NCBI GenBank assembly: GCA_023246715.1
Contig: JAHFHZ010000001.1
Location: forward strand, 48,571 to 112,570
Source: Candidatus Magasanikiibacteriota bacterium
GTDB lineage: Bacteria; Patescibacteriota; Patescibacteriia; Magasanikbacterales; GWA2-37-8
Length of the DNA: 64,000 nt
Reading direction: 5' to 3'
Shown: one piece after another, positions 8,918-35,486 of the stretch
How the letters are laid out: the number at the start of each line of letters is the position of its first letter
Numbering within the stretch: position 1 is the first letter of the stretch
Notes under the pieces: generated by a model
Databases searched by the model: none
The model's input: only the letters and a program-made list of their open reading frames with translations
Told to the model about the DNA's origin: nothing
Position numbers and translations under genes: made by a program

Positions 8918-9625
8918 ATGAAAAAAGTTACGATAGTTATTCCGGTGTATAACGAAGAAAAAACTATTGAAAAAATTCTCAAGAAGGTTTCTGAAGCAAA
9001 TACGCTTGGTTTGGAAAAAGAGATTATCACGGTTAATGACTGTTCCAAGGATAATAGTCGTCAATTGCTCGAAAATTTGAAACAGCAGTACGGATTAAAA
9101 GTTTTCCATCAGGAAGTGAACATGGGTAAAGGGGCGGCGCTGCAGCGCGGGTTCCAGGAAGCGACTGGTGATATTGTCATTGTTCAGGACGCGGATTTGG
9201 AATACTCGCCCGATGAATATATAAATTTGTTGCAGCCAATTTTGGACGGCGACGCTGACGTGGTATATGGTTCGCGTTTTATTAGCGATCGTCCGCACCG
9301 TGTGCTCTTTTTTTGGCATTACGTGGCGAATAAAGGTTTAACGCTCCTGTCTAACATGTTCACCAATTTGAATCTTACGGACATGGAAACTTGTTATAAA
9401 GTATTCAAGCGAGATTTAATGAAACATTTCACTATCCGCGAGAATCGTTTCGGTTTTGAACCGGAACTAACGGCAAAATTGGCCCGTATTCCAGAAATAC
9501 GCATTTATGAAGTCGGTATTTCGTATCGCGGCCGCAGCTATGCGGAGGGTAAAAAACTCAATTGGAAAGACGGTTTCCCAACCGTAAAGGCAATTATTAA
9601 GTATGGTCTTTTTAAAGGAAAATAA
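8918..9625 (+). CDS. GT2 polyprenyl-phosphate glycosyltransferase (DPM1/ArnC-like)
   Basis: [32 protein letters not shown] (DxD) and a length of 235 aa are typical of dolichyl/undecaprenyl-phosphate sugar synthases. Confidence 0.75.
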
Positions 9626-10931
9626 ATTATTGACCGTAATTATCGCAGGCTCATTTGTGTTGAGCCTGTTTTATGCTTTTTATTTTCGGATTACCCCGGT
9701 AGTTGACGCGAAAGCCTACGATCGTATCGCCTGGAATTTAGTTCAAGGTAATGGATTTCGGGAGAATGCTGAAACTCCTTTTAGGTATGATTGGGCCATG
9801 CTCCGGGCCGGGCCGGGATATGAATTTCTGTTGGCCGGTGTTTATTTTGTTTTTGGGCATCGTTTTGAGCCGGTATGGGTGCTACAAGCGTTGTTGCACG
9901 CGCTAACGGCTTTGTTGGTGTACGCCATTGCCCGTGAGTTATTTGCGCAAAACGGCCGACAGGCTGGTTTGCTGGCTGCTGCCGCTATCGCGATAAGCCC
10001 GGATTTAATTGAAATTTCGGCCATGCTTATGACCGAAACACTCTATGTTTTTTGTACCGCACTAGCAGTGTATTTATTTTTGCGTCAATTTCGGCCCGGG
10101 ACAGGATTGCTCGGAGCGCTCAGCGTGGGGACGGCCGTAGGGGTTGGCATTCTCACTCGCCCAACATTGGTGTTGTTTATTCCAATCATGGTCTTTTTTT
10201 ACCTGAGTCGTAAAAAATATGTGGCCGCGGTGATGTTGGCAGTTTGCTCGGGGTTGATTTTATTGCCCTGGGTGCTGCGCAACTATTTGTTGTTTAATCA
10301 AATTATCACTACAACGCTTATCGGGTCGTATAATATCTGGCTGGGTAACACGCTTTTTTCCGACGGCGGGCAATACAACAGCACTGTTAATCCGTTGATT
10401 AGTTATGTTACCGAGCATGGTCTGGAAGGGCTAAAAAAGCACGCGAGCGGTGAATTTATGACTTTTTTATTGAGCCATCCGTTGGTGTTTATTAAATTAT
10501 GCGCCATTCGAGTGGTGCGTTATTTTAGTCTTTTGCGCCCAATGGGATTTTGGTTTTATCAGGTTGGCGTTGGAAAGATTGCCATGGTAGGAAGTTCGCT
10601 AGTGTGGATCGCGGCATTGTTTATCAGCGGCTTTGCCGGGCTGGCCAAGCTCGTTCGCGAGAAAAATCAGACCGGATATTTTTTTGTCGCGCTGGCTCTG
10701 AGCGCTCCACTCCTGCTTTTTTTGACAGCCGTACAATCCCGTTATCGTTTTCAAATCTATCCGTTTTTGGCGGTGTCCGGGGCAGGGTTAATTGTTGCCT
10801 GGTGGCAACAGCGGCGGATTGCCTGGAAAGAAAGTTATTTCGTATTTCCGGTTTTGTTTTTATTGGTGATTAGCACAGTTGATTTATTGTCGAGCGTGCC
10901 GGTAATTTTAGCTCATCTAAAGTTATTTTAA
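9603..10931 (+). CDS. Polytopic GT-C membrane glycosyltransferase (ArnT/PMT-like)
   Basis: Multi-pass membrane protein immediately downstream of the DPM1-like GT2. N-terminal loop motif ...[16 protein letters not shown]. Confidence 0.6.
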
Positions 10932-10944
10932 TTCCTTATTCAGT

Positions 10945-12075
10945 ATGGAAACGCAGCAACAGAACGGATTTTGGTTTGGTAAACGGGTGTTGGTGACCGG
11001 GGGGGATGGATTTGTGGCTTCGCATTTAATTAATTATTTATCCACCCAGGGCGCTTTGCCGGTTATGACGGTTCGTCACCGCCGGCCCATGTTTACGCTT
11101 GAATTGATTAAAGATAAAAATTCCTCCGAAAAAGCAATGATGCCGGATATTGAGCAGTGCGACCTACTTGATTATGAGGCTCTGCGTCGAGTGTGCGATC
11201 GCCACCAGATTGACACCATTTTTCATTTGGCGGCATCGGCAATTGTCAGCGACGCGGCTAATTCGCCGGTGTCAACGATTGAGAACAACGTCATGGGGAC
11301 TTTGAATATATTGGAAATCGCCCGGATTAATAAAATTCCGCGCGTGTTGATTGCTTCGACTGATAAATCGTATGGTGATCACTTAGATGATTCTTTGGAA
11401 CCCTTACCGTATCGTGAAGGTTACGCGCTGCGCGGGATGGACGTGTATAGCGCTTCAAAGGTCTGTGCGGATATGTTGACACAAACGTATTCCTATCAGT
11501 TTAAAGTCCCAGCGATTGTGGTGAGATCCTCGAATATTTTTGGACCAGGTGACTTGAATTTTACTAGACTGATTCCACGTACGATTATGTGTTTGCTCGC
11601 CGGTAAAGCGCCGCTGATTAATCAAGGGAATGAAAAAGTTTTGCGTGAATACATCTATATCGATGACGTGGTTCGAGCGTATACTTTTTTGATGGAGAAG
11701 GTGAGTGAAATCTACGGCGCAGATAACTGCCACATGCCGCACCACGGATCAGCAACCTATGGGTGGACGGCGTTTAACGTTGGTAATTATACAGCTGCCG
11801 AAACTGCCGATCCGCAATCATGTGATTCAATTAAAAACGTGAGCGAAATTATTGAACTTTTGCGGAAAAAAATTACTGATATTCCGCCGGTAGTGAAAGC
11901 AAAGGCGGCTAATTTTATTGAAATCCCAGACCAATATCTGGATTGCTCAAAAATTATCAATCTCGGTTTTCGCCCCCACACCAGCTTTGCCGACGGATTA
12001 CAGCGTTCGATTGATTGGTACCGCGAAAATTATAGCTATTTAGAAAAACGCGCGACGCGTTACGTGCACGCTTGA
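10945..12075 (+). CDS. NAD-dependent epimerase/dehydratase, CDP-glucose 4,6-dehydratase-like
   Basis: FWFGKRVLVTGGDGFVASHL N-terminus (RfbG-like FWxGKRV), STDKSYGD, YSASK catalytic YxxxK. Confidence 0.55.
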   Translation: METQQQNGFWFGKRVLVTGGDGFVASHLINYLSTQGALPVMTVRHRRPMFTLELIKDKNSSEKAMMPDIEQCDLLDYEALRRVCDRHQIDTIFHLAASAIVSDAANSPVSTIENNVMGTLNILEIARINKIPRVLIASTDKSYGDHLDDSLEPLPYREGYALRGMDVYSASKVCADMLTQTYSYQFKVPAIVVRSSNIFGPGDLNFTRLIPRTIMCLLAGKAPLINQGNEKVLREYIYIDDVVRAYTFLMEKVSEIYGADNCHMPHHGSATYGWTAFNVGNYTAAETADPQSCDSIKNVSEIIELLRKKITDIPPVVKAKAANFIEIPDQYLDCSKIINLGFRPHTSFADGLQRSIDWYRENYSYLEKRATRYVHA

Positions 12076-12108
12076 TTGCCTGGTCGCGAAGCAGCTTAAC
12101 CCACCGAT

Positions 12109-13977
12109 ATGTGCGGAATTAACGGCTTAACATTTGCAAATCCAGAGCTGATCGCGAAAATGAATCAGCTCACCGCTCACCGCGGTCCTGACCAGACCGC
12201 GGTTTTTACGTCTGAGGGTATTTCGTTAGGCCATAACCGCCTGGCCATTATTGATTTATCCCCGGCAGCCAACCAGCCGATTTGGGATTCCGAGCACCGA
12301 ACGGCCATTATTTTGAATGGTGAGATTTATAATTATCGGGAGTTACGGGCGCAGCTAGCAAAAAAGTATACGTTTGTTTCACAGAGTGATACGGAAGTCA
12401 TTTTATATGCCTACAAGGAGTATGGTCCGGAGTGCCTGACGAAATTGAACGGGATGTTTGCTTTGGCTATTTGGGATAATCAGACAAAAGAATTATTTTT
12501 GGCTCGCGACCCCATGGGCATTAAACCGCTGTGCTATTTTCAAGACCAGCGAGGCTTGTTTTTTTCTTCCGAGATTAAGGCGCTTCTGGCGGCTGGTGCC
12601 CCGCGAAAGGTGAATACTCAGGCTTTTAGCGCTTATTTTAATTTATTGTATATTCCCGAACCACAAACAATGTTTGAGGGGATATATAAGTTACCTGCCG
12701 GGCATTGGTTGCGGTTTAAGGGCGGACAGCGCACGATCCAGCGTTATTACGCGTTAAACAATTTTTTTGATTTTACTGATTACGTGCAGACGGTTAATCA
12801 GGTGAGGGGCCTATTTAAAGATAGCGTGCGGCGACAGTTGGTGTCTGATCGGCCGGTGGGCGTATTTTTGAGTGGTGGATTGGACTCCACAGCGGTGCTT
12901 GGCGCGGCTACCGAGTTTCATGGCCGAGGGATTAAAACTTTTTCGGTTAGTTTTAGCGACAATGTCGAGCCTGATAAATTTGCAGCCGATGCCCGGTTAG
13001 CTAAGCAGACGGCGGCGTATTATGGTAGTGATCATCAGGAATTAGTAATTGGAGCGGGTGATTTTAGCGAGCAGATCAATAATTTAGTATGGCATTTAGA
13101 TGAGCCAAATTTTAACCCAACTGCAGGAGCGATGTTTTTACTGTCCCGCCTGGCAAAACAACACGTGGCGGTGGTGTTGGGTGGGGACGGGGGAGATGAA
13201 TTATTTGGTGGGTACCCGCGGTATTATTATAGTCGATTGATTTCGGCATTTCAGCGGCTGCCAAGCGCGACCCAGCAGATTGGTCGTGGTCTGCTCTCTC
13301 TGGTCGGCAAAAAGGATTTTGCGGAGAAATTAGCTTTGCCCCCCGATGCGCGACGAGTATTGGCTTTTTTACTTCAAAAGCAACAAACGGTGCATAGTGT
13401 GATCCAGCCAAGTTACGCCGATGCTCGGGGCTTGGAGGTTGATTTTCAACAACGCTATTTTGGAGTATCATCCGCTGGCGTGAAGACAGATTTTGAAAAG
13501 CACTTTATGCATATTGATCGGCAAAGCTGGTTGGTAGACGAATCCCTCCTGCGCACTGATCGGATGACCATGGCGTTTGGATTAGAAGCGCGCGTGCCAA
13601 TTTTAGATTATCGTTTGGTGGAATTGGCCTTGCGCATCCCCACGGCGTGGAAGTTTAGTTTGTGGCAACGACCCAACAAATTCCAAGGTAAACACATTTG
13701 GCGCGACGCGGTGCGTGAATACTTGCCAGAACATGTTTTGAACCAACCAAAGCGAGGATGGTTTACCCCCATGGCCAAGTGGGTTCGCGCGGATTTGCGT
13801 TTACTGGTAGAGGACATATTGCTTTCGGATCGGTTACCAACGGAATTTTTTAATCGGGTTGGGGTAGCCCGGATGTGGCAAGATCATCTGAGTAAAAAAT
13901 ACTATAATTTGAACATGCTTTGGGCGATCGTGATGTGGCAGTTATGGTACGAACGGTTCATTAAAAGTTCAAGTTAA
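12109..13977 (+). CDS. asnB: Asparagine synthetase-like glutamine amidotransferase (AsnB family)
   Basis: MCGI N-terminal nucleophile Cys2, PP-loop SGGLDSTAV, length of 622 aa. Confidence 0.85.
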   Translation: MCGINGLTFANPELIAKMNQLTAHRGPDQTAVFTSEGISLGHNRLAIIDLSPAANQPIWDSEHRTAIILNGEIYNYRELRAQLAKKYTFVSQSDTEVILYAYKEYGPECLTKLNGMFALAIWDNQTKELFLARDPMGIKPLCYFQDQRGLFFSSEIKALLAAGAPRKVNTQAFSAYFNLLYIPEPQTMFEGIYKLPAGHWLRFKGGQRTIQRYYALNNFFDFTDYVQTVNQVRGLFKDSVRRQLVSDRPVGVFLSGGLDSTAVLGAATEFHGRGIKTFSVSFSDNVEPDKFAADARLAKQTAAYYGSDHQELVIGAGDFSEQINNLVWHLDEPNFNPTAGAMFLLSRLAKQHVAVVLGGDGGDELFGGYPRYYYSRLISAFQRLPSATQQIGRGLLSLVGKKDFAEKLALPPDARRVLAFLLQKQQTVHSVIQPSYADARGLEVDFQQRYFGVSSAGVKTDFEKHFMHIDRQSWLVDESLLRTDRMTMAFGLEARVPILDYRLVELALRIPTAWKFSLWQRPNKFQGKHIWRDAVREYLPEHVLNQPKRGWFTPMAKWVRADLRLLVEDILLSDRLPTEFFNRVGVARMWQDHLSKKYYNLNMLWAIVMWQLWYERFIKSSS

Positions 13978-13993
13978 TTTTTTAAGTTTACTT

Positions 13994-14725
13994 TTGATTT
14001 TTCATGTGCAGTGTTTTACGATTTTAAGAGAGACCTGGAGAGGAAAGGATATCTATCGAGTGCTGATGAATCAGGCCTGCGCTGATTTTACGATGAAAGG
14101 ATTGACTGTTGATGTTGGCAGTAGCACGCGGCTGGCCAGTTATCATCGATTTTTACAGAAAGACCCCGGTACGACGCTGGAGTGTTTAGATTTGGGTTTT
14201 GAAAGCACCGGAATTGGCGGCAAACGTATAGACTTAGAGCAGGATAAGCTGCCGTACGCCGATGGGGTGGTGGATAGCGTACTGATGTTTAATCTGTTGG
14301 AACATATTTATAACTACGATCAAGCGCTCCGTGAAGCAGCGCGAGTTTTAAAGCCGGGAGGGCAGTTGATTGGCGCGGTGCCGTTTTTAGTTAACTATCA
14401 CCCTGATCCCCATGACTATTGGCGTTTTACGGGCGAGACATTACAAAATATTTTTACGCAAGCGGGCTTTAAGGATATTCAAGTTATTTCCTTTGGTTGT
14501 GGGCCATTCACGGCAGGTTGGTCGCATGTTGAGCAGGTAGTACCGCGGATTTTGAAAATTATCTTTTTACCACTTGTTTTGTTATTTGACGCGGCAGTAT
14601 CGGCGCTTGTACCAAAGATGAATAAAGATCGGTTTAGCCTGGGTTTTTTATTTCATTGCCGAGCGCCTGCCGCGGGAGAAGCGCAGGCAAAATCCATACA
14701 GGTAGCTGGCGCCCAGGCCGCCTAA
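13994..14725 (+). CDS. Class I SAM-dependent methyltransferase. The start is uncertain; alternative ATGs lie at 14066 and 14093.
   Basis: Motif I LTVDVGSST. Methyltransf_11-like spacing. The 3' end overlaps a convergent gene by about 78 bp. Confidence 0.55.
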   Translation: MIFHVQCFTILRETWRGKDIYRVLMNQACADFTMKGLTVDVGSSTRLASYHRFLQKDPGTTLECLDLGFESTGIGGKRIDLEQDKLPYADGVVDSVLMFNLLEHIYNYDQALREAARVLKPGGQLIGAVPFLVNYHPDPHDYWRFTGETLQNIFTQAGFKDIQVISFGCGPFTAGWSHVEQVVPRILKIIFLPLVLLFDAAVSALVPKMNKDRFSLGFLFHCRAPAAGEAQAKSIQVAGAQAA

Positions 14726-15988
14726 GAAGAAAATAATTCCAAGAAGTGGTACGCGCATCCGTGAGTAGCTGACACAGAGCGTTATAACGGCGTTAGCGAG
14801 TATGATTGATCCAAGCGCCAGGGCCACATAGTATTTTTTTTCTTTGTAGAGCGCGACCAAGCCGCCGACAACCAACAAAAGCATTGTTGCCCACACCATG
14901 TTGTCTAGGTAGGTTGCGAAACGCCCTAGGAAGCTTTGTTTTGTTCCTTTACGAATCATGTCGAGGATAGTGTCGTAGCGGCTGTCAAACCAAATTTTGG
15001 GCGCACAGAGTAATTGACTTACAACGATATTTTTTTGACCAATATGAGCAGTTACTTCGGCTGCCTTTTTTTTAATATTGGGATATTCGTTGGCGTTAAA
15101 ACCAACCATTGCGCTGCCCACGCGACCTTTAGCATCAAATATCTGCGGGCCCTCTTCGAGGGATTTTTTTTCGGCTGGAGTACCAAAAATACTGATGACG
15201 TTATATTGATAGCTTGAGCTTAATGTTGGCGTGCCGAGCAAAGCGTAATTGCGGATCAACCAAGAGCTTATTAATAACATGAAACATGTTGCAAAAAGCA
15301 GGCACCCTTTCAGTTTTTTTGCTAACGGAACCTGTTGGTTGGAAATAAGCAGCAGTCCCAGCCCCGGAGTCCATAGCAAGCCGACCGGGCGAGCGAGGGT
15401 GGCAATTCCCAGGGCTACCCCCGCCACCGCTGAGCGCAACCAAAACCATTTGGCTGATTCCGTATTTGGTCGGCGTAAAAGCAGGTATAGGGATAGAAAC
15501 ATGAAAAAACCATAGAAGCTTTCACTCATGGTTTGAAGTGACAACATCCATTGGAGCGGTTCGATTAAGAACAAACCCGTGAAACAATAACCGATTTTTG
15601 GTCGCCCGTATTGATCAAATAGTTTAAACAGCATCCAGCCCGAGAGGAGGAGTAAAATTTGTTGAACAGCGATAATCAGCAGGCCGCTTTTATCAAAGAA
15701 TTCTAGCGCGGCCAGAAATAAAGGGTAGCTTGGGGGCCGTAGTACCTGGGGGAGGTAAGGGGCATTTGGCGAGAGTGAAAACCCATGCCCAGCAAGAACA
15801 TTCTGGCCAATCAGACGGTATTGTAAGGCATCTTGAATCGGTGAAATATCCAAGTGCTTAGTGGCTACAAAATATATGCTGGCGGCGTGCAGAATGGCCA
15901 AAAAACCAAAAAAAATTAGCCGAGGGTGGCGGCGTAAAAAACTGAATTTTTTTGAGGTGCCGCGTTCGATTGCGGCAGACGTTTCCAT
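14648..15988 (-). CDS. Polytopic GT-C membrane glycosyltransferase (ArnT/PMT-like)
   Basis: More than 10 predicted helices. Adjacent to a DPM1-like GT2. Confidence 0.6.
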   Translation of the reverse strand: METSAAIERGTSKKFSFLRRHPRLIFFGFLAILHAASIYFVATKHLDISPIQDALQYRLIGQNVLAGHGFSLSPNAPYLPQVLRPPSYPLFLAALEFFDKSGLLIIAVQQILLLLSGWMLFKLFDQYGRPKIGYCFTGLFLIEPLQWMLSLQTMSESFYGFFMFLSLYLLLRRPNTESAKWFWLRSAVAGVALGIATLARPVGLLWTPGLGLLLISNQQVPLAKKLKGCLLFATCFMLLISSWLIRNYALLGTPTLSSSYQYNVISIFGTPAEKKSLEEGPQIFDAKGRVGSAMVGFNANEYPNIKKKAAEVTAHIGQKNIVVSQLLCAPKIWFDSRYDTILDMIRKGTKQSFLGRFATYLDNMVWATMLLLVVGGLVALYKEKKYYVALALGSIILANAVITLCVSYSRMRVPLLGIIFFLGGLGASYLYGFCLRFSRGRRSAMK

Positions 15989-16005: not shown

Positions 16006-16713
16006 TTAGAGTTCGCTTTTTTTGGTGAATAAAATACGCAGCGCAAAAGGCGCGTAGCGGAAGCGTTTCCAGGTATTCATCTTGGATACCCCTTCGGTTC
16101 GTTTACGCCAAATTGAAGGAATTTCGATTGCTTTGTACCCAAGCCTCAGCGGCTTAAGCGTGGTTTCCATAGCTATCTCATGCAATTCTCCCCACCAGTG
16201 TACTTCTTTGAGCAATCGGGCGTTGAATATTTTAAACCCGTAGGTCAGGTCGTGTAGTTTGGTGAAATACAAAATGCGAAACACAATTTGGAAACCCCGA
16301 TTCAAGACATAGGTAAGCGGATCGTATTTATACACAGCACCTCCTTTGATCCAACGGCTGGCCACGGCCAGATCGTAGCCCTGTTCGGCAGCTTTAATCA
16401 TTTTTGGTACAGTTGCCAGATCCATTTCACCATCGGCATCGAGCATGAGCACATGACTGCCAGTGACTAGTGTAAACGCTTGGCGATAAGCGCGGCCAAG
16501 TCCAGGGTTTTCTTTTTGCGTGTAGTGACGCAGGAAGGGGTAGATTTTTTCCAGTTCCTGACAAATTTCAAAAGTACGCTGGCTGGAGCGCGGCGACACA
16601 ATGATGATTATTTGGTGCAAAGCGCTGCTGTTCCCCGCTACCAGAGCGTGGACTGTTTTACGCAGCACCTCTTCTTCAGACCACACCGGAATTATTACCG
16701 AGAGTTTGATCAT
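16006..16713 (-). CDS. GT2 polyprenyl-phosphate glycosyltransferase (DPM1-like)
   Basis: MIKLSVIIPVWSEEE, LMLDADGE (DxD). The start was moved to the internal ATG to avoid a long overlap with fcl. Confidence 0.7.
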   Translation of the reverse strand: MIKLSVIIPVWSEEEVLRKTVHALVAGNSSALHQIIIIVSPRSSQRTFEICQELEKIYPFLRHYTQKENPGLGRAYRQAFTLVTGSHVLMLDADGEMDLATVPKMIKAAEQGYDLAVASRWIKGGAVYKYDPLTYVLNRGFQIVFRILYFTKLHDLTYGFKIFNARLLKEVHWWGELHEIAMETTLKPLRLGYKAIEIPSIWRKRTEGVSKMNTWKRFRYAPFALRILFTKKSEL

Positions 16714-17680
16714 ATAACACTTTTTTCTTACGATCAGCTTCAATTTTATGGGCGAGGTACCAGGTAACGGTTTTTTGCAGGCCGTCACGCAGTGTTTGTC
16801 GTGGTTCCCAGCCGAGTTTTGTTTTCATTTTCGTGACGTCAAGAATTTTTTTGAGCTGGCCATCTGGTTTGCTGGTGTTCCAGGTTATCTCTCCTTGGTA
16901 AACAACTACCTCGCGAATCATTTCGGCTAACTCCCGAACGCTACAACCATTAGTGGTGGTTAAGTTCATTGGTGCGCCATCATCGTATTTTTCGGTGGCG
17001 AGCACGATCCCGTTGGCCGCATCTTCAACATACAAAAAATTGCGAGTTGGCGCTCCGGTTCCCCACACTTCCACAAATGGCATTTTGTCCATTTTAGCTT
17101 CCACAAAACGCCTGATTAGCGCACCTACGACGTGCGAACTGCCAAAATCAAAATTATCGCCCGGGCCATACATGTTGGTGGGAATTAAAAAAATAGAGTG
17201 AAATCCGTATTGTTTTTTGTAAGCCCACGATTGAACAGATAAAATACGCTTCACGATGCCGTAATCAAGAGCGGTTTCATGGGGTGGTCCTGTCCAGAGA
17301 TCTTCTTCGACTAAAATATCTTTATTCAGATATCCGGGGTAGGCGCAATCTGATCCGATGATGACAAATTTTGCTACTTTGTTAACACGCGCCGCTTCAA
17401 TTAAATTCGTACTCATCATTAGATTTTCGTAGTAGATATTTCCTGGAAATTTTTCGTGGATAGCCATTCCGCCATAAAAGGCGGCACAATGGATAATAAT
17501 GTCAAATTTTTGTTCAGCCAGGTATTTTTCGGTGGCTGCTTGACGGGTAAAATCAACTTCGCTACGGTGCGGTGTTACTATGGCGCCGGAGCGTGGCAGC
17601 AGCCGCTCTCGAATTTGGCTCCCCAGGAATCCGTTGCCACCAGTAATTAATATTTTTTTGTTTTGGAAAAAATTGGTCAT
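16676..17680 (-). CDS. fcl: GDP-L-fucose synthase (GDP-4-keto-6-deoxymannose 3,5-epimerase/4-reductase), or the ColC homologue
   Basis: KKILITGGNGFLGS; SHVVGALIRRFVEAK...VEVWGTGAPTRNFLYVEDAA matches the Fcl/GMER signature region. Confidence 0.8.
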   Translation of the reverse strand: MTNFFQNKKILITGGNGFLGSQIRERLLPRSGAIVTPHRSEVDFTRQAATEKYLAEQKFDIIIHCAAFYGGMAIHEKFPGNIYYENLMMSTNLIEAARVNKVAKFVIIGSDCAYPGYLNKDILVEEDLWTGPPHETALDYGIVKRILSVQSWAYKKQYGFHSIFLIPTNMYGPGDNFDFGSSHVVGALIRRFVEAKMDKMPFVEVWGTGAPTRNFLYVEDAANGIVLATEKYDDGAPMNLTTTNGCSVRELAEMIREVVVYQGEITWNTSKPDGQLKKILDVTKMKTKLGWEPRQTLRDGLQKTVTWYLAHKIEADRKKKVLYDQTLGNNSGVV

Positions 17681-17779: not shown

Positions 17780-17861
17780 TGTCATTCCCGCGAAAGCGGG
17801 AATCCAGACACTCACGTTTTTGTCTTACCATGATTGGATTCCCGCTTTCGTGGGAATGACA
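17780..17861. repeat. Nested palindromic element. Arms are tgtcattcccgcgaaagcgggaatcc (17780-17805) and ggattcccgctttcgtgggaatgaca (17836-17861). Each arm is itself a GAAA-loop hairpin.
   Basis: Read directly from the sequence. The arms are reverse complements with 1 mismatch. The ATTCCC-N8-GGGAAT core is present. It lies in the 324-bp divergent intergenic region between fcl (-) and a GT4 gene (+). Confidence 0.8.
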
Positions 17862-21038: not shown

Positions 21039-21743
21039 ATGCCGGAAATCTCGATTATTATCCCAATTTATAACGAACAAGCAATTTTGCATAAAGAAGT
21101 TTTAAGCATCGTCAGCGAGCTTAAAAATTTTTTGCCGCAGATAAACTACGAAATTATTTTGGTTGAAAATGGCAGCGTAGACGCGACCCGTTCAATCGCC
21201 GAGGGGCTAACACGATCTTACCCAACAATTCGTTTGGTACATTTACCGGCAGCCAGCTATGGCCGCGCGCTTAAGCATGGAATTAATGAAAGCCGGGGAG
21301 TGTATACGGTGCTGTTTAATATTGATTTTTGGGATGTGCCCTTTATCGTAAAGGCGCTCGAGATAATGCGCTACGGAAAAATGGATATGGTGGTTGGTTC
21401 CAAGACAATGAAGGGGGCGGAAGATACTAGGCCGTTTTTGCGCCGTCTGATTACGCAATTGTTCAATAAATTACTACGGTTAATCTTTGGCTTTACCGGT
21501 ACGGACACGCATGGAATTAAACTTCTGCGTCAGGATAAAATTTTGCCGGTGGTGGCCGCCTGTCAGACGGAGCGCGAAATTTTTGATACCGAGTTCGTGT
21601 TGCGTTCGCAACGAATGGGTTTGCTTACGGCAGAAATCCCCGTCGTTTGCCAGGAAAAGAGAGCCACGGTGTATCACATTAGCAAACGGATACCTCGAAC
21701 AATTAAAGATTTAATCGTGTTATTTTTTTCATTGCGCCGTTGA
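21039..21743 (+). CDS. GT2 glycosyltransferase (DPM1-like)
   Basis: MPEISIIIPIYNEQ, LFNIDFWD. The start was taken at the first ATG after the asnB stop. Confidence 0.65.
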   Translation: MPEISIIIPIYNEQAILHKEVLSIVSELKNFLPQINYEIILVENGSVDATRSIAEGLTRSYPTIRLVHLPAASYGRALKHGINESRGVYTVLFNIDFWDVPFIVKALEIMRYGKMDMVVGSKTMKGAEDTRPFLRRLITQLFNKLLRLIFGFTGTDTHGIKLLRQDKILPVVAACQTEREIFDTEFVLRSQRMGLLTAEIPVVCQEKRATVYHISKRIPRTIKDLIVLFFSLRR

Positions 21744-23195: not shown

Positions 23196-24968
23196 ATGAA
23201 TACCTATACTTGGAAAATTTTTTTGTTTCGGAGCATTTCGTTTTTTCGCACCCACGCCTTTGGATTGCTATTAGCGGGAGCGGTTACGTTGGCGGTGAGC
23301 CTGCCTCCGGTTATTTGGCATTTTTCGACTGATTTCCGAGGCGTGGAGATGCTTAAAACTAACACCGAAGCGCACTATGTCGCTCAAGTACAGGAGGTAT
23401 ATGATGGCCACCCACGTTTGGGCAACACTTTTTTTCAAGGTCTAAAAAATTCTGATTACTTGTTTCCGCCACTATCTCCAAATTTGGTTGCTTTATTTGG
23501 CAAGCTTATTGGGGTAGGGGCAGTCGGCGCGGTTATTGTAGGGCGTTTTTTGTTTGTATTTTTGTTGGCTTTGGCAATTTACGGTTTCGCGTATCGTCTG
23601 TTTGGCAGCACTCGTTGGGCGGCGGTGGCAGCCCCGTTCATTATTTTGGGCTATGCGTTGTTTGATCCACACACGCTCTTGCGTTTATTTTCTTTTGGCC
23701 AAGGGGCTGGCGAGGCTACCTTCATTGATTATGGTCGGCCCATTAACCCCCAAATTAGTTCATTATTCTTTTTTGGGTATCTATATTTTTTCTGGCAGTT
23801 TTTGATTGTTCCATCTCGCCGTACCTTGTTGGGAGTGGTTTCGGCCGTATTGCTGGGCGCTAGTTTTTACGTGTACTTATTTACCTGGACTTATTTATTT
23901 ACCCTCAATGGTTTTTTATTTTTATTATTTTTACTGCGTAAAGATTTTGAGAGTGTTAAACGAGTTGTGGCGGTTACTATTGCGGCCGCGGTACTTGGCA
24001 TACCGTACGCATTTAATTTGTTGGCGGCTAGCCAGAATACCTGGTATGCCGAAACGGCAGTACGTTTTGGGTTTGTGGCTTCCCACGCGCCCAATATTAG
24101 CCGGTTGGTGCTTGGTTTAATAGTCGTTTATTTATTTGCGAAGTCTTTGCTCACCACGAAACAGCGTGTTTTTTTTGGGTCATTTTTTGTAACAGCGTTG
24201 GTGGTGGCCAATGAACAAATTATAACCGGTAAATATATTTTTAATCATCACTATCACTGGTATTACACCACACCGCTCGTGGCCCTAGGCGTACTCGCGT
24301 TTTTTGCTCAATGGTTTAAGGCCCATCCCGACAAAAAGCGGGTTGAAGTTTTGGCGGTAGCGCTGTTGGTTGCATTATTTTTTGTACAGGGAATCAAGGT
24401 GCAGGTTTTGTCGTATCAAGCATCCAAGGAATCAATGGTTGATGAGCAGCGTTACGCCCCAGTGATTGATTGGTTTAACCATGAAAGCCCCCTAGACAGC
24501 GTGATTTTTGCCCCCGCCCCGTTGCTACGTTTGCTTCCCGCGGTTACGCATAATAATGTGTACTATTACGGCACTGGTATCTACACTCTTGTTTCAAATG
24601 AACGGCTCATGGATACTTATTTGGCGCAGATCTATTTACAGCGTGTGCCACAAGTGGATATCCGTCTGTATCTAGACGAGCATCAGGCAGAAATTGCGGG
24701 GTGGGTGTTTGGGTACACTTTCAGTTTTCAGCCCGGAGTATGCAGCACCTGCGTGCCAGAGGATTTTTTGGATAAGGCCGCCGAACGTTACCGACAGCTT
24801 ACTGACGCCAATTTTGCATCGTTTTTACTTAAATACCCTTTGGATTATATCGTGACCGATGAAAAAACCGACCCGGGTTGGAGAGTGGATCGGTTTGGTT
24901 TCGTTCCGGTTGCTAAATTCGGCACGCTGACTATTCATTCGGCCGCGGCTCTTCTTGCCGGGCCATAA
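23196..24968 (+). CDS. Large polytopic membrane protein (590 aa). Possibly GT-C, or an O-antigen polymerase/ligase-like protein.
   Basis: Many TM helices and a C-terminal soluble domain. No diagnostic motif recognised. Confidence 0.35.
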   Translation: MNTYTWKIFLFRSISFFRTHAFGLLLAGAVTLAVSLPPVIWHFSTDFRGVEMLKTNTEAHYVAQVQEVYDGHPRLGNTFFQGLKNSDYLFPPLSPNLVALFGKLIGVGAVGAVIVGRFLFVFLLALAIYGFAYRLFGSTRWAAVAAPFIILGYALFDPHTLLRLFSFGQGAGEATFIDYGRPINPQISSLFFFGYLYFFWQFLIVPSRRTLLGVVSAVLLGASFYVYLFTWTYLFTLNGFLFLLFLLRKDFESVKRVVAVTIAAAVLGIPYAFNLLAASQNTWYAETAVRFGFVASHAPNISRLVLGLIVVYLFAKSLLTTKQRVFFGSFFVTALVVANEQIITGKYIFNHHYHWYYTTPLVALGVLAFFAQWFKAHPDKKRVEVLAVALLVALFFVQGIKVQVLSYQASKESMVDEQRYAPVIDWFNHESPLDSVIFAPAPLLRLLPAVTHNNVYYYGTGIYTLVSNERLMDTYLAQIYLQRVPQVDIRLYLDEHQAEIAGWVFGYTFSFQPGVCSTCVPEDFLDKAAERYRQLTDANFASFLLKYPLDYIVTDEKTDPGWRVDRFGFVPVAKFGTLTIHSAAALLAGP

Positions 24969-26514
24969 TAAACATATTGTCTCGTAAATTCAGCGGAATA
25001 GAGAGTCGGTTCAGCCGGCTTTTTTGTAGGTAATTAGATATTTTTCGCCAGATTGCCTGGTGGCGAATAGTATACATAATTTGGAAGATGTAAGCCGGTT
25101 GGAATTTTTTGCCAATATTTCCGATTTCAATCACGGTGAAGTCGTGTTTATTTAAGATCATCGACAGATTTTTGGGATTGAAAAGCCGGATGTGTTCGGG
25201 TGGAATAATTAAAGGCCAAAAACGCCCTAAAATTTTGGCGACGGCGCTCCCGGCATTTGGCATATTCATTACCACAATTCCACCCGGTTTAAGTAATTTG
25301 GTTATTTTGAGTAAGGTTAAATTGGGGTCGGGCAGGTGTTCAAATACGTCCCAGAGAGTTATAACATCGAACGAATGCGGAGCGAAGACGGCATTGTCTA
25401 GGGTACCGGTTTGCACCGCTAGCCCACGGCCCCGAGCGGCCGCAGCCGCGTAGTCGGAAATTTCTACTCCGGCCACCTGCCACCCCCGCTGTTTTGCTAT
25501 GGTTAAAAAAGATCCGGTGGCAGCGCCGATGTCTAGAATACTGCCCTTGTTAGGATGTTTTGCTTCAATTTTATCTAAATATATTTGCAACGTGACATTT
25601 TCCGCTTGTTTGGTTTGCTCATAATCAACATAACCAAAGCCTTGCGTGGCGCCAGTAAAATAATCCGCGGAGTAGAGGGCGTTAAATTGATCAGGAAGTG
25701 GCGCGATAAAAATCAGCTGGCAAGCAACGCAGCGCCTTACTTTGCAGTTATTTTTGGTAAACCAGAAACGTGTATTCAGCGAGGCGCAAGCGGGACAAGG
25801 CAACGCGCCGCCTGGTTGCCAACGAATCAAATTCCAGGGCAGCAGCACTCCTTCCTGGATAATACGTAGGGAAATTTTTGATTCACCGCTGAGGCGACTT
25901 TTAAATAGGATGGGTAGTTCTACGATTCGTTTGCCGAGCTTCCAGATTTTGTATTTTAGATGCATTAAAAAGGCGTAACCAGAAGGATCGATTTCCGAAA
26001 AATTAATTTCGCGTAGCATCTTTGTGTTTAAGCACATGAATCCGCTGGTGCAATCGGTGATTGGCAGACCGGTAACCAAACGGCAATACCAGTTACCGCC
26101 ACGGCTTAAAATTTTTCGCCATAGTTCCCAACCTTCAATGCCGCCTTCGCCTGTGTAGCGGGAGCCGATTACCAGGTCGTGATTAGCGCCCAGACGAATT
26201 AATTCTGGCAGGTACGACGGGTCATGCGATCCGTCTGCATCCACGGTACAGATGTGGGTAAATCGGCCCTCGGTTAAAATTTTGCTGAAAGCATCAGAAT
26301 ATGCCCGGCCCAAGCCTTCTTTTTTAGGTCGAGAATAAAGTATTAAACGAGGAAATTGCGCGGTAAGTTCAGTTACCGCCGCTGCTGTACCATCGGGTGA
26401 GTTATCGTCGATAACCATTACCGAAACGTGGGGAACGGTAGCAAAAATTTTAGGGATCACTGCCCGGATGTTTTCTTTTTCATTATACGTGGGCAGCAGA
26501 ATTATCGTTTCCAT
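24931..26514 (-). CDS. Bifunctional GT2 glycosyltransferase (DPM1-like) / zinc-ribbon / class I SAM methyltransferase fusion
   Basis: N-terminus METIILLPTYNEKENI...DDNSPDGT. Middle CPACASL...CVACQ zinc ribbon. C-terminus ILDIGAATGSFL methyltransferase motif I. Confidence 0.7.
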   Translation of the reverse strand: METIILLPTYNEKENIRAVIPKIFATVPHVSVMVIDDNSPDGTAAAVTELTAQFPRLILYSRPKKEGLGRAYSDAFSKILTEGRFTHICTVDADGSHDPSYLPELIRLGANHDLVIGSRYTGEGGIEGWELWRKILSRGGNWYCRLVTGLPITDCTSGFMCLNTKMLREINFSEIDPSGYAFLMHLKYKIWKLGKRIVELPILFKSRLSGESKISLRIIQEGVLLPWNLIRWQPGGALPCPACASLNTRFWFTKNNCKVRRCVACQLIFIAPLPDQFNALYSADYFTGATQGFGYVDYEQTKQAENVTLQIYLDKIEAKHPNKGSILDIGAATGSFLTIAKQRGWQVAGVEISDYAAAAARGRGLAVQTGTLDNAVFAPHSFDVITLWDVFEHLPDPNLTLLKITKLLKPGGIVVMNMPNAGSAVAKILGRFWPLIIPPEHIRLFNPKNLSMILNKHDFTVIEIGNIGKKFQPAYIFQIMYTIRHQAIWRKISNYLQKSRLNRLSIPLNLRDNMFIMARQEEPRPNE

Positions 26515-31217: not shown

Positions 31218-31219
31218 AT

Positions 31220-32326: not shown

Positions 32327-33173
32327 TTTTTTAGAAGCAATATTTTATTTAAAACAGCCTGTCGAGGCGAAAGTATACTACCAGCCTATGCCCGAAGCGC
32401 CCGTACAACCCAAGCAGAATGACTGGAATTTTCAATGGGAGAATTTTTACGATGATTCTTTGTTTTTGTTTAAGGAATGGATTTTTCCGCATACTTTGGA
32501 AACCTTCCGGGGAAAGAGCGTGGTTGATTGCGGGTGCGGCGGAGGGCAACATATTAATTTTGTCGCCCCCTTTGCCCGTCGAATTATTGGCATTGACTTG
32601 AACACCACCGCAATCGCCCGTGAACACACCGAACAGCACAGCATTGTTTCGTTTGTGGAAGGGGATTTGGCCAGCGTGAGCCTGCCCGAACAGCATGACG
32701 TGGTTTATTGCATTGGCGTTTTACAACATACCACCAACCCGGACGCCACGTTCGCGAATATAAAAAAAATGGTCGCGTCGGGGGGGCGTTTAATGATCTG
32801 GTGTTATTCCAAAGAGGGTAACTGGCCTAATTGGCTTATTTTGGAACCCTTGAAACGTTGCTTTATCCTTAAATTACCTAAACGAGCATTACTGTATTTG
32901 GCTACGGCGCTGACCGCGCTTTTGTACCCTGTTATTTATACGCTGTATTTATTGCCGCTCAGGTTTTTGCCTTATTACGAATATTTTGGTAACTGGCGTA
33001 AATTATCGTTTGGACGGAATCGATTAAATGTCTTTGACAAACTGAACGCGCCCATCACTAATTTTATTACGCGAGTTCAAGTAGAACGTTGGTTTAATCA
33101 GGCTGAATTTTCGGATATCTTTATTGATCAGTATAAAGGAGTGAGTTGGCGTGCTTCGGGTGTTAAATTGTAA
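32292..33173 (+). CDS. Class I SAM-dependent methyltransferase (alternative start at 32388)
   Basis: VVDCGCGGGQH motif I. Ends in ...LMIWCY. Confidence 0.6.
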   Translation: MPRITARYLENNFLEAIFYLKQPVEAKVYYQPMPEAPVQPKQNDWNFQWENFYDDSLFLFKEWIFPHTLETFRGKSVVDCGCGGGQHINFVAPFARRIIGIDLNTTAIAREHTEQHSIVSFVEGDLASVSLPEQHDVVYCIGVLQHTTNPDATFANIKKMVASGGRLMIWCYSKEGNWPNWLILEPLKRCFILKLPKRALLYLATALTALLYPVIYTLYLLPLRFLPYYEYFGNWRKLSFGRNRLNVFDKLNAPITNFITRVQVERWFNQAEFSDIFIDQYKGVSWRASGVKL

Positions 33174-33177
33174 AAAT

Positions 33178-34629
33178 ATGCTTGCGGCATTTCGGAATTT
33201 CTATCAAGCCCAGCGCGTGCCAATTATTTTGTTCGTGACGGCATTTGTTTTTCACGCGGCCATGTCGGCTTATTTATACTATCGTTTTGGCGATTCGGTT
33301 TTATGGTTTCAAAATGAAGACGCGCAAGGGTACGTGGAATTGGCGCGTAACGTGCTTACCGGGCGAGGTTTTACCCATGACGGCGCTGCGCTCGCGATTC
33401 GTACCCCGGCGTGGCCGTTGATGCTATCTTTAGGTTTGCTTTTGCCCGGCTCCGCAACAGCAGCAATTTTATTTTTGCAGGTTGTATTGCTGGGGGCTTC
33501 GGGTATTATAATTTATAAAATAGGTGAGTTATTTTTTTCAAAATTTGCCGGGTTAATCGCCTCGACACTCTATATTGTTGAACCTTACTTAGCGATGAAT
33601 ACGGCTTTGGCAACCACTGAAGTTTTTTTTAATTTTGGTTTATTGATAACGGTGTATTGTTTTGGACGTTGGTATCTTCGGCGCGACTCCCAGGCTTGGC
33701 TGGCTGCTTCGGGGCTTTGGCTGGGACTTTGTATTCTTATTCGGCCAGTGGCCTTGTATCTGCCGTTTTTATTTTTGATTTTTATCATCATTCGCCTCCT
33801 GTATTTTAAAAAGAGCACTCTGTCATTACTGGTTAGTTTGTTTATCCTAAGCGCCACTACCACATTGGTGGTGGCGCCATGGTCGATTCGCCAGTATATC
33901 CGTTTTGGTACTCCGCGCATTACCAATATTGACGCGATGTTATTATACTTTCGGGTGGCGCCGCTGGTTATCGGCGCTGAACAAGGCATTAGCTATAACG
34001 CGGCGATTCAGCAGTTGCACGGCGAATTGGAGCGTTCGGTTGAGCTTTATAATCCTGATGATTTAAATGCTAATTTTGTTCATTATGAATTCATGAGCGC
34101 AAGAGTGGCGGAATTGGTTCGTCAACGCCCAGATGTGGTAGCAAAAAGTTATTTGGCTTCAATGGTACCGGCCCTGTTTGGTACGGGTTACGAATATATG
34201 TTGGAAGAAGTGCTTGGTTTAGAGCGCGCCACGCAACGCCCCAGCTACTCCGCGCTGTTAGCTCGGGGAGATTTCGCTGCTTATTTTAGGGCTCTTCGCC
34301 AAATCGATATTTTTCAAGCTGTTTTATTAACTGGCGCGCTGTTGTGGATGGCTGCTTACGTATTTATTGTTTATTACGTAACCCGCAGGTTTGTTTGGAG
34401 AGAACGTTTTTTGAGTTTAGTGCTGCTCGGAGGCCTGCTTGGTTATTTTGTTTTTTTTGCGTTGGGCCCTGCCAGCCACGCCCGTTATCGCTTACCTACA
34501 TTTCCGTGGTGGTTTCTACTTATTGGCGCCAGCCTTGATTTTATTAAGCAAAAGCGTATACTAGGCTCACGCAAAGAGGCTGCTTCTTTTGGCCTTAATA
34601 AGCCTTTTATCCCCGGCCAGACCCCTTAA
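33178..34629 (+). CDS. Polytopic GT-C membrane glycosyltransferase (ArnT/PMT-like)
   Basis: Loop-1 motif ...DAQGYVELARNVLTGRGF and about 12 TM helices. Immediately followed by a DPM1-like GT2. Confidence 0.6.
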   Translation: MLAAFRNFYQAQRVPIILFVTAFVFHAAMSAYLYYRFGDSVLWFQNEDAQGYVELARNVLTGRGFTHDGAALAIRTPAWPLMLSLGLLLPGSATAAILFLQVVLLGASGIIIYKIGELFFSKFAGLIASTLYIVEPYLAMNTALATTEVFFNFGLLITVYCFGRWYLRRDSQAWLAASGLWLGLCILIRPVALYLPFLFLIFIIIRLLYFKKSTLSLLVSLFILSATTTLVVAPWSIRQYIRFGTPRITNIDAMLLYFRVAPLVIGAEQGISYNAAIQQLHGELERSVELYNPDDLNANFVHYEFMSARVAELVRQRPDVVAKSYLASMVPALFGTGYEYMLEEVLGLERATQRPSYSALLARGDFAAYFRALRQIDIFQAVLLTGALLWMAAYVFIVYYVTRRFVWRERFLSLVLLGGLLGYFVFFALGPASHARYRLPTFPWWFLLIGASLDFIKQKRILGSRKEAASFGLNKPFIPGQTP

Positions 34630-34634
34630 TTTAT

Positions 34635-35486
34635 ATGCAAAAAATTTCAGTTATTCTGCCTGCTTACAATGAAGAATTGGGGATTGCTAAAGTTCTTTCT
34701 CGGCTTAAGGAAGTTTTGGCTAACGCCCCAGATTCGGAAATACTGGTTGTTAATGATGGGTCAACAGACGCCACGGCCAGCATTGCCATGGCCCATGGAG
34801 CGCGGGTAATTTCTAATCCAACCAACATGGGTTATGGATTTTCGTTGAAGCGTGGTTTTGTGGCCGCGGTTAACGAATGCGTGGTGATTACCGATGCGGA
34901 TGGCACGTATCCAATTGAGCGTTTGCCGGATTTAGTCGCTGAATTTGATAAGGGCTTGGATTTGGTGGTGGGCGCGCGCCAGGGTGCCAATTATTGGTCT
35001 AGTTGGACCAAGGGTTTTGCTCGTTTGTGCTTTAAATGGATGAGTCAATTTGTCGTGGGCAAGCGGATTCCCGATATTAATTCGGGTTTTAGAGTCATCC
35101 GCCGCAGCAAAATTGTGCCGGTTTTGAACGATCTTTCTAACGCTTTTTCATTTACCACCTCAATGACCTTGATTTTTTTCTTGAAGCATTATTTCATCCG
35201 TTATTTGCCAATTAGTTACGAACAAAGACAAGGTCGGTCTAAAGTGCACTACTTCCGCGATACATTAATCACCTTGCAGATTCTGGCCGATATTATCGCT
35301 CGCTATAACCCAATAAAATTATTTTTATTGCTGGCGTTGTTTCCTTTCGCGCTGATGTTGGTTTGTTTGGTTTTCGCGTTGGTTTGGGGGGTGTGGCTCT
35401 GGTTGCCACTGGCCTTTTTGGCCGGCTTTGGCGCGTTGTTGATTGTCGCGCTTGGTTTTATTGCCACAATTTTTAGACGCAATTAG
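34635..35486 (+). CDS. GT2 polyprenyl-phosphate glycosyltransferase (DPM1/GtrB-like) with C-terminal TM helices
   Basis: MQKISVILPAYNEELGI, VNDGSTDAT, ITDADGTYP. Two C-terminal TM helices as in GtrB. Confidence 0.75.
   Translation: MQKISVILPAYNEELGIAKVLSRLKEVLANAPDSEILVVNDGSTDATASIAMAHGARVISNPTNMGYGFSLKRGFVAAVNECVVITDADGTYPIERLPDLVAEFDKGLDLVVGARQGANYWSSWTKGFARLCFKWMSQFVVGKRIPDINSGFRVIRRSKIVPVLNDLSNAFSFTTSMTLIFFLKHYFIRYLPISYEQRQGRSKVHYFRDTLITLQILADIIARYNPIKLFLLLALFPFALMLVCLVFALVWGVWLWLPLAFLAGFGALLIVALGFIATIFRRN

Follow-up and report, generated by a model that had tools for sequence, protein, structure and literature searches.

Multiple polyprenyl-phosphate-sugar synthase and GT-C glycosyltransferase modules predicted in a surface-glycan island of a Magasanikbacteria-like bacterium

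Gene content and source of the window

The window analysed here is a stretch of 64,000 nucleotides from the assembly GCA_023246715.1 of a Candidatus Magasanikiibacteriota bacterium (contig JAHFHZ010000001.1, positions 48,571 to 112,570 of the forward strand). It carries five family 2 glycosyltransferase (GT2) genes, each lying next to one of six genes for multi-pass membrane proteins of the GT-C type (Table 1). Together these genes likely make up a number of parallel modules for multi-component transmembrane glycosylation, of the GtrB/GtrC, ArnC/ArnT or Ppm1/Pmt type, within a surface-glycan island. All of the genes that a first-pass annotation of the sequence had placed here were recovered in the open reading frame (ORF) map and the Pfam scan. 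Proteins are referred to below by the start position of their gene.

Approximately 97% of the window is coding, and scans with Pfam and NCBIfam showed its content to be glycan biosynthesis throughout. The genes include eight GT4 glycosyltransferases, Gmd, an Fcl-like enzyme, several short-chain dehydrogenase/reductase (SDR) epimerases and dehydratases, a DegT aminotransferase and a Wzx flippase, as well as two AsnB-type amidotransferases, a carbamoyltransferase, two NeuB proteins, two HisH/HisF-like pairs and an acylation set of MBOAT, SGNH and carrier proteins. Exact copies of the window proteins were present in the metagenome assemblies ENA ERZ27296333 and Logan SRR14366772 and in a 142-kb NCBI contig. 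On the 21,978-bp contig of ERZ27296333, from the same organism, two Wzy_C-TPR proteins (754 and 674 aa) are encoded just upstream of the window, and these are candidate polymerases, ligases or O-oligosaccharyltransferases for its glycan. The same contig codes for a TPR protein of 229 aa and for another protein longer than 1,079 aa, and a similar Wzy_C-TPR gene (685 aa) lies at the edge of one related locus, L010.

Homologues of GT-C_9603 are about 50% identical, and those with names belong to Candidatus Magasanikbacteria, Niyogibacteria, Paceibacterota and Patescibacteria. The related loci used for comparison (designated L and a number) are from metagenome-assembled genomes (MAGs) of Magasanikbacteria. 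Three of them (L003, L006 and L007) are labelled "uncultured Gammaproteobacteria", whereas their genes and closest relatives are like those of Magasanikbacteria and other members of the Candidate Phyla Radiation (CPR); the labels are probably wrong. Judging from the named homologues and the MAG titles, the source is a Magasanikbacteria-like CPR bacterium, and the locus probably belongs to an island for surface-glycan biosynthesis that spans at least 64 kb.

Table 1. Genes of the predicted glycosylation modules and of associated functions in the window
Position	Strand	Predicted product	Evidence
3811-4824		Gmd	405 bits against a cut-off of 415
6041..7732	+	GT-C fold glycosyltransferase, divergent family, C-terminal extracytoplasmic alpha/beta domain	conserved D32/D38
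8918..9625	+	GT2 without transmembrane helix, predicted polyprenyl-phosphate sugar synthase	PF00535 120.7 bits; DAD at residue 91
9603..10931	+	GT-C glycosyltransferase, PMT_2 type	PF13231 59.3 bits; 9 transmembrane segments (hydropathy)
14648..15988	-	GT-C glycosyltransferase, PMT_2 type, in variable minus-strand cassette	PF13231 35.1 bits
16006..16713	-	GT2 without transmembrane helix, predicted polyprenyl-phosphate sugar synthase	PF00535 83.8 bits; DAD
16676..17680	-	GDP-L-fucose synthase-like epimerase/reductase, first gene of minus-strand cassette	NCBIfam GDPFucSynFcl 285 bits, best match, under equivalog cut-off
21039..21743	+	GT2 without transmembrane helix, predicted polyprenyl-phosphate sugar synthase	PF00535 69.2 bits
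21747..23189	+	GT-C glycosyltransferase, PMT_2 type	PF13231 35.3 bits
23196..24968	+	GT-C fold glycosyltransferase, family without Pfam/NCBIfam model, C-terminal extracytoplasmic domain	
24931..26514	-	DPM1-like GT2 fused to class I S-adenosylmethionine (SAM)-methyltransferase	PF00535 79.8 bits; Methyltransf_23 99.4 bits
26540..28072	-	Wzx/MOP-type flippase, candidate for repeat unit and/or lipid-phosphate-sugars	PF13440 Polysacc_synt_3 217.6 bits
28091..29335	+	DegT-type sugar aminotransferase, upstream of the 33151/34635 module	PF01041 281 bits; resembles RfbH, PseC, ArnB
33151..34629	+	GT-C glycosyltransferase, PMT_2/PMT type, first ATG 33178	PF13231 46.2 bits; PF02366 29.1 bits
34635..35486	+	GT2 with 2 C-terminal transmembrane helices (ArnC/GtrB architecture), predicted polyprenyl-phosphate sugar synthase	PF00535 93.4 bits

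The GT2 proteins

All five GT2 proteins exceeded the gathering score of the Pfam family PF00535 (Glycos_transf_2), and in every case the top solved relative was a polyprenyl-phosphate glycosyltransferase, either DPMS, the dolichyl-phosphate-mannose synthase of P. furiosus (PDB 5mlz), or ArnC (9hwj), with near-full coverage in four of the five. For GT2_8918 the best solved relatives were DPMS 5mlz (residues 3–213 of 235) and ArnC. DPMS 5mlz was also the top match of GT2_16006 (residues 2–227 of 235) and of GT2_21039 (only residues 3–140 of 234), and it aligned to residues 2–233 of the GT2-methyltransferase at 24931 (E 2e-28). GT2_34635 is the single member of the five with transmembrane (TM) helices (residues 229–247 and 259–277); its top PDB match was ArnC 9hwj (residues 2–257 of 283), followed by GtrB 5ekp (residues 3–270, with the TM region included), and it scored 106.8 bits against the NCBIfam model for dolichyl-phosphate hexose transferases. 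Within NCBIfam the best matches of the GT2 proteins were AglJ, ArnC, PgfS, PpgS and the dolichyl-phosphate hexose transferase, near full length; models of repeat-unit or processive GT2 enzymes aligned to the N-terminal ~100 residues only. The earlier description of GT2_8918, GT2_16006, GT2_21039 and GT2_34635 as DPM1-like is supported, with GT2_21039 showing the likeness over a part of its length.

A DAD motif is present in four of the five (8918, 16006, 24931 and 34635). The ORF of GT2_16006 reaches a GTG at 16788, with the ATG at 16713 being its probable start, and that of GT2_21039 opens at 20982, with the true start placed at ATG 21039 by alignment of its orthologues. These two ATGs, like the one at 33178 in GT-C_33151, fit the domain boundaries and the orthologous proteins. 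Orthologues of the GT2 part of 24931 occur unfused in L003 and L005, in a minus-strand block of GT2, KpsS-like and Wzx genes.

Pairwise identity is 21–35% among the GT2 proteins and at most 28% among the GT-C proteins, which indicates old, functionally distinct paralogues and not recent duplicates. The GT2 identities also led us to reject recent tandem duplication as the source of the cassettes. It is plausible, judging from this divergence, that the GT2 paralogues have different sugar specificities.

The GT-C membrane proteins

Four of the six membrane proteins (9603, 14648, 21747 and 33151) exceeded the gathering score of PF13231 (PMT_2), in agreement with the first-pass annotation. Its GT-C calls for the other two found no backing in the family libraries: GT-C_6041 scored 24.0 bits in Pfam, under the cut-off of 26.1, and GT-C_23196 had neither a Pfam nor an NCBIfam match. 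Strong structural matches of these two proteins were to GT-C enzymes only, which places them in the GT-C fold. The best structural match of 23196 was AftA; sequence identities in the structural alignments were only 9–14%. The 23196 family could be linked to the 9603 family by profile-profile comparison, through its N-terminal 180 columns (probability 75%, E 2.5e-5). The same comparison was weak for the 6041 family (hhalign, probability 38%), so its relation to GT-C enzymes was settled by structure. By sequence, the six proteins fall into at least four families.

Six to nine TM segments were detected per protein by hydropathy, a conservative count, with the AF2 models of 6041 and 23196 containing ~11–13 membrane helices. 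Lysine and arginine residues lie ahead of TM1 in 9603, 23196 and 6041, as read from the sequence, in keeping with a cytoplasmic N-terminus. The acidic residues predicted for the first extracytoplasmic loop of GT-C enzymes were located in all six, at D35/D40 (9603), D53 (14648), D33/D38 (21747), E58/E67/D70 (23196), D57 (33151) and D32/D38 (6041). In the 9603 family, which has at least 350 homologues, mainly from CPR bacteria and Magasanikbacteria, D35, Y39 and D40 directly after TM1 are invariant in 37 sequences, as are E137 and R186-P187. Shared by 9603, 14648 and 33151 is a loop-1 motif, D-A-x-x-Y...N-[LV]-x-x-G-x-G-F, together with (T/S)E and L-x-R-P motifs. The corresponding GFPDxPxPWFDxGxNLG motif of 21747 is invariant in six orthologues, and D57, E-P, T-E and R-P of 33151 are conserved in four. 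D32 and D38 of 6041 are invariant in 25 sequences. In 23196, E58 is invariant in 16 close relatives and E67 and D70 are at least 90% conserved in 32. A profile of this last family retrieved 3,490 representatives at E ≤1e-3 among 1.84 billion cluster representatives (clusters at 50% identity).

A match to Wzy_C (PF04932), ligase or transporter families, which the first-pass annotation had named, along with loss of the loop-1 acidic motif, as the outcome that would overturn its proposal, was seen in none of the six proteins in Pfam or NCBIfam. Against the ArnT equivalog model NF009784, GT-C_9603 scored 23.4 bits with a cut-off of 567, and the others gave no match. Orthology of the window proteins to ArnT and ArnC was rejected, the equivalog scores being far under the cut-offs. 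The GT-C proteins are, as far as their sequences indicate, ArnT-like in fold and predicted mechanism, yet not ArnT.

Pairing and fusion of GT2 and GT-C genes

Each GT2 gene had been described as lying beside a GT-C gene, and this adjacency holds for all five. In four cases (8918+9603, 16006+14648, 21039+21747 and 34635+33151) the partners are on the same strand with a spacing of −23 to +17 nt; GT2_8918 and GT-C_9603 overlap by 23 nt, and this pair is kept in L009 and L010. The description does not extend to an operon in the fifth case: the GT2-methyltransferase gene at 24931 runs convergently with 23196 (38-nt overlap) and in the direction of the Wzx gene, so that it adjoins a GT-C gene without being its operon partner. 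In shuffles of the gene order, all five GT2 genes fell beside a GT-C gene with P = 1.5e-4 (59 genes), or 3.7e-3 when the first 30 genes only were used.

Further evidence for coupling was found in the related loci. Orthologues of GT2_21039 and GT-C_21747 form a single ORF of 711–729 aa in four independent MAGs (L001/L007, L003, L004 and L006). In the 711-aa fusion of L001 (7863–9998), the N-terminal half is 64% identical to GT2_21039 and the C-terminal half 46% identical to GT-C_21747. The two window genes are themselves in one frame, which is split solely by TGA-TGT-ATG (21741–21749, with the TGA at 21741–21743). A nonsense split with re-initiation, read-through of the stop codon or a sequencing error may account for this. 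Recoding of UGA was discarded as an explanation: of 56 window genes tallied, 12 stop at a TGA, and translation table 11 yields a compact gene map. A second combination, found in L008, joins a 6041-like membrane domain to a domain resembling GT2_8918 (42% identity), which suggests that GT2_8918 also feeds 6041.

The 23196 family provides a third set of fusions. When N-terminal extensions of its members were tested, those of ~240 residues contained a GT2 domain in five of five cases and those of ~140 residues a GtrA domain in three of three; one member with an N-terminal extension bears a GT4. In the related loci, homologues of 23196 always come directly behind a GT2 gene or behind a GT2 and a GT-C, whether these two are fused or separate. 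The GT2-GT-C and GtrA-GT-C fusions of relatives thus support functional coupling independently of gene order. GT2_8918 probably serves both 9603 and 6041, and GT2_21039 probably serves 21747 and perhaps also 23196.

Proposed mechanism

The gene adjacency and the fusions to GT2 or GtrA lend indirect support to the prediction that the GT-C proteins use lipid-phosphate-linked sugars as donors. The architecture proposed earlier for this locus, synthesis of lipid-phosphate-monosaccharides followed by extracytoplasmic transfer, is supported at the level of folds, motifs, conserved adjacency and fusions, from which we infer the biochemistry. In a first step, each of the five divergent GT2 proteins would move one monosaccharide from a nucleotide sugar to polyprenyl phosphate, the putative donor lipid, at the cytoplasmic face of the membrane. 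The lipid-phosphate-sugar would then be flipped across the membrane, with the Wzx protein at 26540 and a multi-TM protein at 43357 being candidate flippases. On the outer face, the neighbouring GT-C protein would use its loop-1 aspartate or glutamate to pass the sugar to an acceptor. The acceptor would most probably be a hetero-polysaccharide or oligosaccharide built by the GT4 enzymes and Wzx of the island and by the upstream Wzy_C-TPR proteins.

Wzx-type flippases such as GacK have been proposed for C55-P-GlcNAc (PMC8035078). The second candidate (43357–44286, minus strand) is a protein of 309 aa with at least six strong TM segments and without a sequence match in Pfam, NCBIfam or the PDB. 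By eye it is DMT/EamA-like, and its role as a lipid-phosphate-sugar flippase is speculative. As to the sugars, the presence of Gmd and the Fcl-like enzyme suggests a GDP-6-deoxyhexose for the 16006 module, while the DegT and SDR enzymes may supply an amino sugar to the ArnC-like 34635 module.

Evidence against the proposed modules and alternative explanations

A number of observations weigh against this mechanism. No GtrA-family flippase (PF04138) was matched among the window proteins scanned, and no unannotated small ORF with at least two TM segments, as expected of an SMR-like flippase, was found in the window. GT2_21039 has NID in place of DxD, and NID is kept in its orthologues. A gene for a GacJ-like membrane partner of the TM-less GT2 proteins was likewise not found in the window. 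TM-less polyprenyl-phosphate synthases do exist, human DPM1 being one, and in relatives of the window proteins the membrane anchor comes from the GT-C fused to the GT2. Some characterised TM-less synthases nevertheless require a membrane partner, as in GacI/GacJ (PMC8035078). No GT2 and no GT-C protein reached an NCBIfam equivalog cut-off, and for this reason no specific activity can be assigned. A metagenome scan with GT-C_14648 returned no relatives, so that its D53 is backed by alignment to paralogues only. PDB sequence searches with GT-C_9603, as a single sequence and as a profile of 37, gave no match; the PMT_2-type proteins are without a solved relative detectable by sequence. The convergent placement of 24931 also counts on this side.

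The alternative that keeps the same enzymology and changes the acceptor is somewhat unlikely. It would make the system one of protein O-glycosylation like PMT/Ppm1, acting on secreted or surface proteins such as S-layer proteins or pilins. Membership of four GT-C proteins in PMT_2, with 33151 also passing PF02366 (PMT), agrees with it, as do the Wzy_C-TPR proteins upstream of the window, since the Wzy_C family also includes O-oligosaccharyltransferases of the PglL type. Pilin glycosylation in CPR bacteria has been suspected and is unexplored (PMC11623550). However, PMT_2 also covers ArnT and many glycan- or lipid-directed enzymes, and AftA, ALG12 and ArnT, whose acceptors are glycans or lipids, gave equal or higher structural scores. 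The modules also sit amid eight GT4 genes, Wzx, nucleotide-sugar pathways and O-acylation genes, as is typical of a polysaccharide locus, and the window contains no candidate acceptor protein.

It is unlikely that the GT-C proteins instead build the main chain itself outside the membrane from lipid-phosphate-sugars, in the manner of the mycobacterial Aft, Emb, Mpt and PimE enzymes for arabinan and mannan. Six GT-C proteins with five donors do exceed the usual one to three decoration systems (PMC8035078, PMC11754754). One related locus also has UbiA and HAD genes, resembling the decaprenylphosphoryl-arabinose (DPA)/PPPRS donor route, beside its GT2 and GT-C genes (PMC11127046). Against this, a full cytoplasmic assembly line (eight GT4, Wzx and upstream Wzy_C) suggests a conventional backbone, and one dedicated synthase per GT-C suits the addition of single sugars.

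A broader version of extracytoplasmic assembly is given still less credence. An array of GT-C proteins, each hard-wired to its own synthase, would assemble most of the envelope glycan outside the membrane. The fused GT2-GT-C and GtrA-GT-C proteins, and the TGA-split version in the window, would be self-contained machines for synthesis, translocation and transfer that dispense with a free-standing flippase, with hand-off and possibly flipping taking place inside one protein or complex. The 23196 family would then be an unrecognised major family of GT-C enzymes.

Improbable as well is the suggestion that the GT2 proteins are ordinary cytoplasmic Leloir enzymes acting on an undecaprenyl-diphosphate-linked repeat unit, with their adjacency a result of crowding and the GT-C donors coming from elsewhere. 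The GT2 family is huge, none of the five reached an equivalog cut-off, four of the five lack TM helices, and GT2_21039 lacks DxD and matches DPMS over residues 3–140 alone. Yet polyprenyl-phosphate sugar synthases head the solved and curated relatives in every case, near full length in four of the five; GT2-GT-C fusions recur in two different combinations; members of the 23196 family carry a fused GT2 or GtrA domain; and the adjacency has a P of 1.5e-4. Finally, that some of the membrane proteins are Wzy, O-antigen ligase, transporter or oligosaccharyltransferase (OST) proteins, with 23196 being AglB/STT3-like, is hardly credible, even though 6041 and 23196 lack a valid Pfam assignment: Wzy_C and transporter matches are missing from all six, all strong structural matches are to GT-C enzymes, the OST motif WWDxG is absent from the 23196 (0/32), 6041 (0/25) and 9603 (0/37) family members examined, and the GT2 and GtrA fusions of the 23196 family are hallmarks of monosaccharide-phosphate-lipid systems.

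Comparison with known systems

The predicted modules of GT2 synthase and GT-C transferase follow a mechanism that is already known and has been established by experiment in other systems (PMC8035078, PMC11754754). In GtrA/GtrB/GtrC of Shigella and Salmonella phages and in CsbB/GtcA/YfhO, GtlA/GtcA/GtlB and GacI/J/K/L of Firmicutes, a GT2 likewise produces a C55-P-monosaccharide, whose sugar is then transferred on the outer side of the membrane by a GT-C encoded next to it (PMC8035078). The GT-C proteins of these systems show low mutual similarity and are often recognisable by structure only, and the systems include a TM-less synthase (GacI) and a Wzx-type option (GacK) (PMC8035078). The window Wzx gene, co-oriented with the DPM1-like GT2-methyltransferase gene, resembles GacI/GacK in this respect (PMC8035078). 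Unlike the GtrABC and Gac systems, the window has neither a GtrA gene nor a GacJ-like partner, two of its GT-C families are without a Pfam or NCBIfam model, relatives fuse GT2 and GT-C, and the host is an uncultured CPR bacterium. Whereas multi-component systems have been described in numbers of one to three, the window has five synthases and six GT-C proteins in one locus. The closest precedent for multiple pairs is SccN/SccM and SccP/SccQ of Streptococcus mutans, two GT2/GT-C pairs in one cell-wall polysaccharide locus (PMC11754754). In that species the lipid-linked sugar made by each synthase is used by its partner GT-C, and no flippase has been identified (PMC11754754). Both S. mutans pairs deliver glucose, differing in its anomeric form, to a rhamnan; the window synthases are more numerous and far more divergent (21–35% identity).

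A resemblance to ArnC/ArnT is seen in the 34635/33151 module, with GT2_34635 having the ArnC/GtrB architecture and ArnC as its top solved relative and its partner 33151 being PMT_2/ArnT-like. The window DegT and SDR genes lie just upstream of 33151 and 34635, as do ArnB and ArnA in the arn operon. The window differs in its equivalog scores, 23 against a cut-off of 567 for ArnT and 65 against 529 for ArnC, and in having no ArnD, ArnE or ArnF genes. To our knowledge, CPR bacteria are monoderm and have no lipid A. In mycobacteria and corynebacteria, the Ppm1-Pmt, AftA-D, Emb, PimE and Mpt enzymes likewise comprise many GT-C proteins that are fed by polyprenyl-phosphate sugars for envelope glycans, with GT2 synthases of the DPMS/Ppm1 type. 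The many mycobacterial GT-C proteins draw on two donors, polyprenyl-phosphomannose (PPM) and DPA, whereas nearly every GT-C protein of the window has its own adjacent synthase. Pentofuranose systems, composed of PPPRS, a small transporter and a GT136 GT-C with a C-terminal soluble domain, also add side chains outside the cytoplasm after polymerisation (PMC11127046). In contrast to these, the window donors would come from GT2 proteins and not from UbiA-type phosphoribosyltransferases, and a small EmrE/ArnE-like transporter is absent. No relevant work specific to GT-C or GT2 cassettes in CPR bacteria turned up in the literature collection that was searched.

Variable cassette and modular gene order

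The core order GT4a-b-c-(Gmd/GT4d)-GT4e-GT2_8918-GT-C_9603-AsnB-methyltransferase-GT4_18005 is kept in L009 and L010. The minus-strand unit of the Fcl-like gene, GT2_16006 and GT-C_14648 (14648–17680) is absent from the same position in both, and in L010 the methyltransferase gene directly precedes GT4_18005, which identifies this unit as an inserted, variable cassette. At one of its edges is a divergent intergenic region of 324 nt containing a 27-nt inverted repeat at 17780–17861 (TGTCATTCCCGCGAAAGCGGGAATCCA), which is 96% complementary with a 28-nt spacer and unique in the window (0 chance matches expected). This repeat could be an operator or an insertion scar. The 3′ end of the methyltransferase gene (13994–14725, plus strand) overlaps the convergent GT-C_14648 by 78 nt, and its product has 243 aa compared with 221 aa in L010, consistent with the insertion of the cassette having altered its C-terminus.

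The related loci are likewise mosaics that combine several GT2 with several PMT_2 genes. The order 33151-like GT-C, DegT and GT2 is retained in L001 and L004. In L003 an ORF of 879 aa (11742–14381) combines a GT-C_33151-like domain (32% identity) with DegT (59% identity). This may be a real fusion or an assembly or frameshift artefact, the two being adjacent separate genes in L001 and L004. In L009 (13644–15170), UbiA and HAD genes lie directly after a series of PMT_2, PMT_2 and GT2 genes, resembling the DPA/PPPRS route to polyprenyl-phosphate-pentofuranose (PMC11127046).

Significance

What sets this locus apart is the number of modules, two unclassified GT-C families, the natural fusions in relatives and the CPR host. 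The CPR, or Patescibacteria, are ultra-small and mostly episymbiotic bacteria whose surface chemistry is essentially unknown, with genomes typically of roughly 1 Mb. More than 64 kb for a single glycan island is thus a large share of a typical CPR genome. If the modules work as proposed, the surface glycan would be heavily and variably decorated, with at least one module, Fcl-GT2-GT-C, being a gained or lost cassette, and such a glycan would be an obvious candidate for the factor that governs host recognition or resistance to phages. Current family libraries miss two GT-C families, one of which has thousands of members. The GT2-GT-C and GtrA-GT-C fusions are attractive structural targets for learning how a lipid-linked donor passes from the synthase through the flippase to the transferase, which is unresolved even in model systems (PMC11754754).

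Other genes of the island

Downstream of GT2_34635, the stretch 35489–41784 holds a set of plus-strand genes (35489–35866, 35871–37682, 37690–37923 and 37926–41784) that includes two small ones not present in the coarse ORF map, for a 4′-phosphopantetheinyl transferase (PF01648) and a 77-aa carrier protein (PF00550). With an FkbH-like/GNAT protein, a MaoC dehydratase, an SDR, an MBOAT and an SGNH/AlgX-like protein, these make up a Dlt-like set (carrier, MBOAT, SGNH) with an FkbH-type loader, which we infer to be an extracytoplasmic O-acylation module for the glycan.

Between 44383 and 62725 there are seemingly two pathways of the nonulosonic-acid type, with NeuB at 54429 and 60883, a PseB-like dehydratase and a CMP-transferase-like gene. 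HisH/HisF-like pairs lie within the same region (53036/53661 and 56754/57361), as do PP-loop proteins like "N-acetyl sugar amidotransferase" (51865 and 55491), a formyltransferase, a PIG-L deacetylase, a carbamoyltransferase and a GNAT protein. This gene set suggests heavily modified acidic sugars with acetamidino groups. Also located inside the glycan island is a gene (58198–60504, plus strand) for a protein of 768 aa with metallo-beta-lactamase, rhodanese and class-V aminotransferase (cysteine desulfurase-like) domains.

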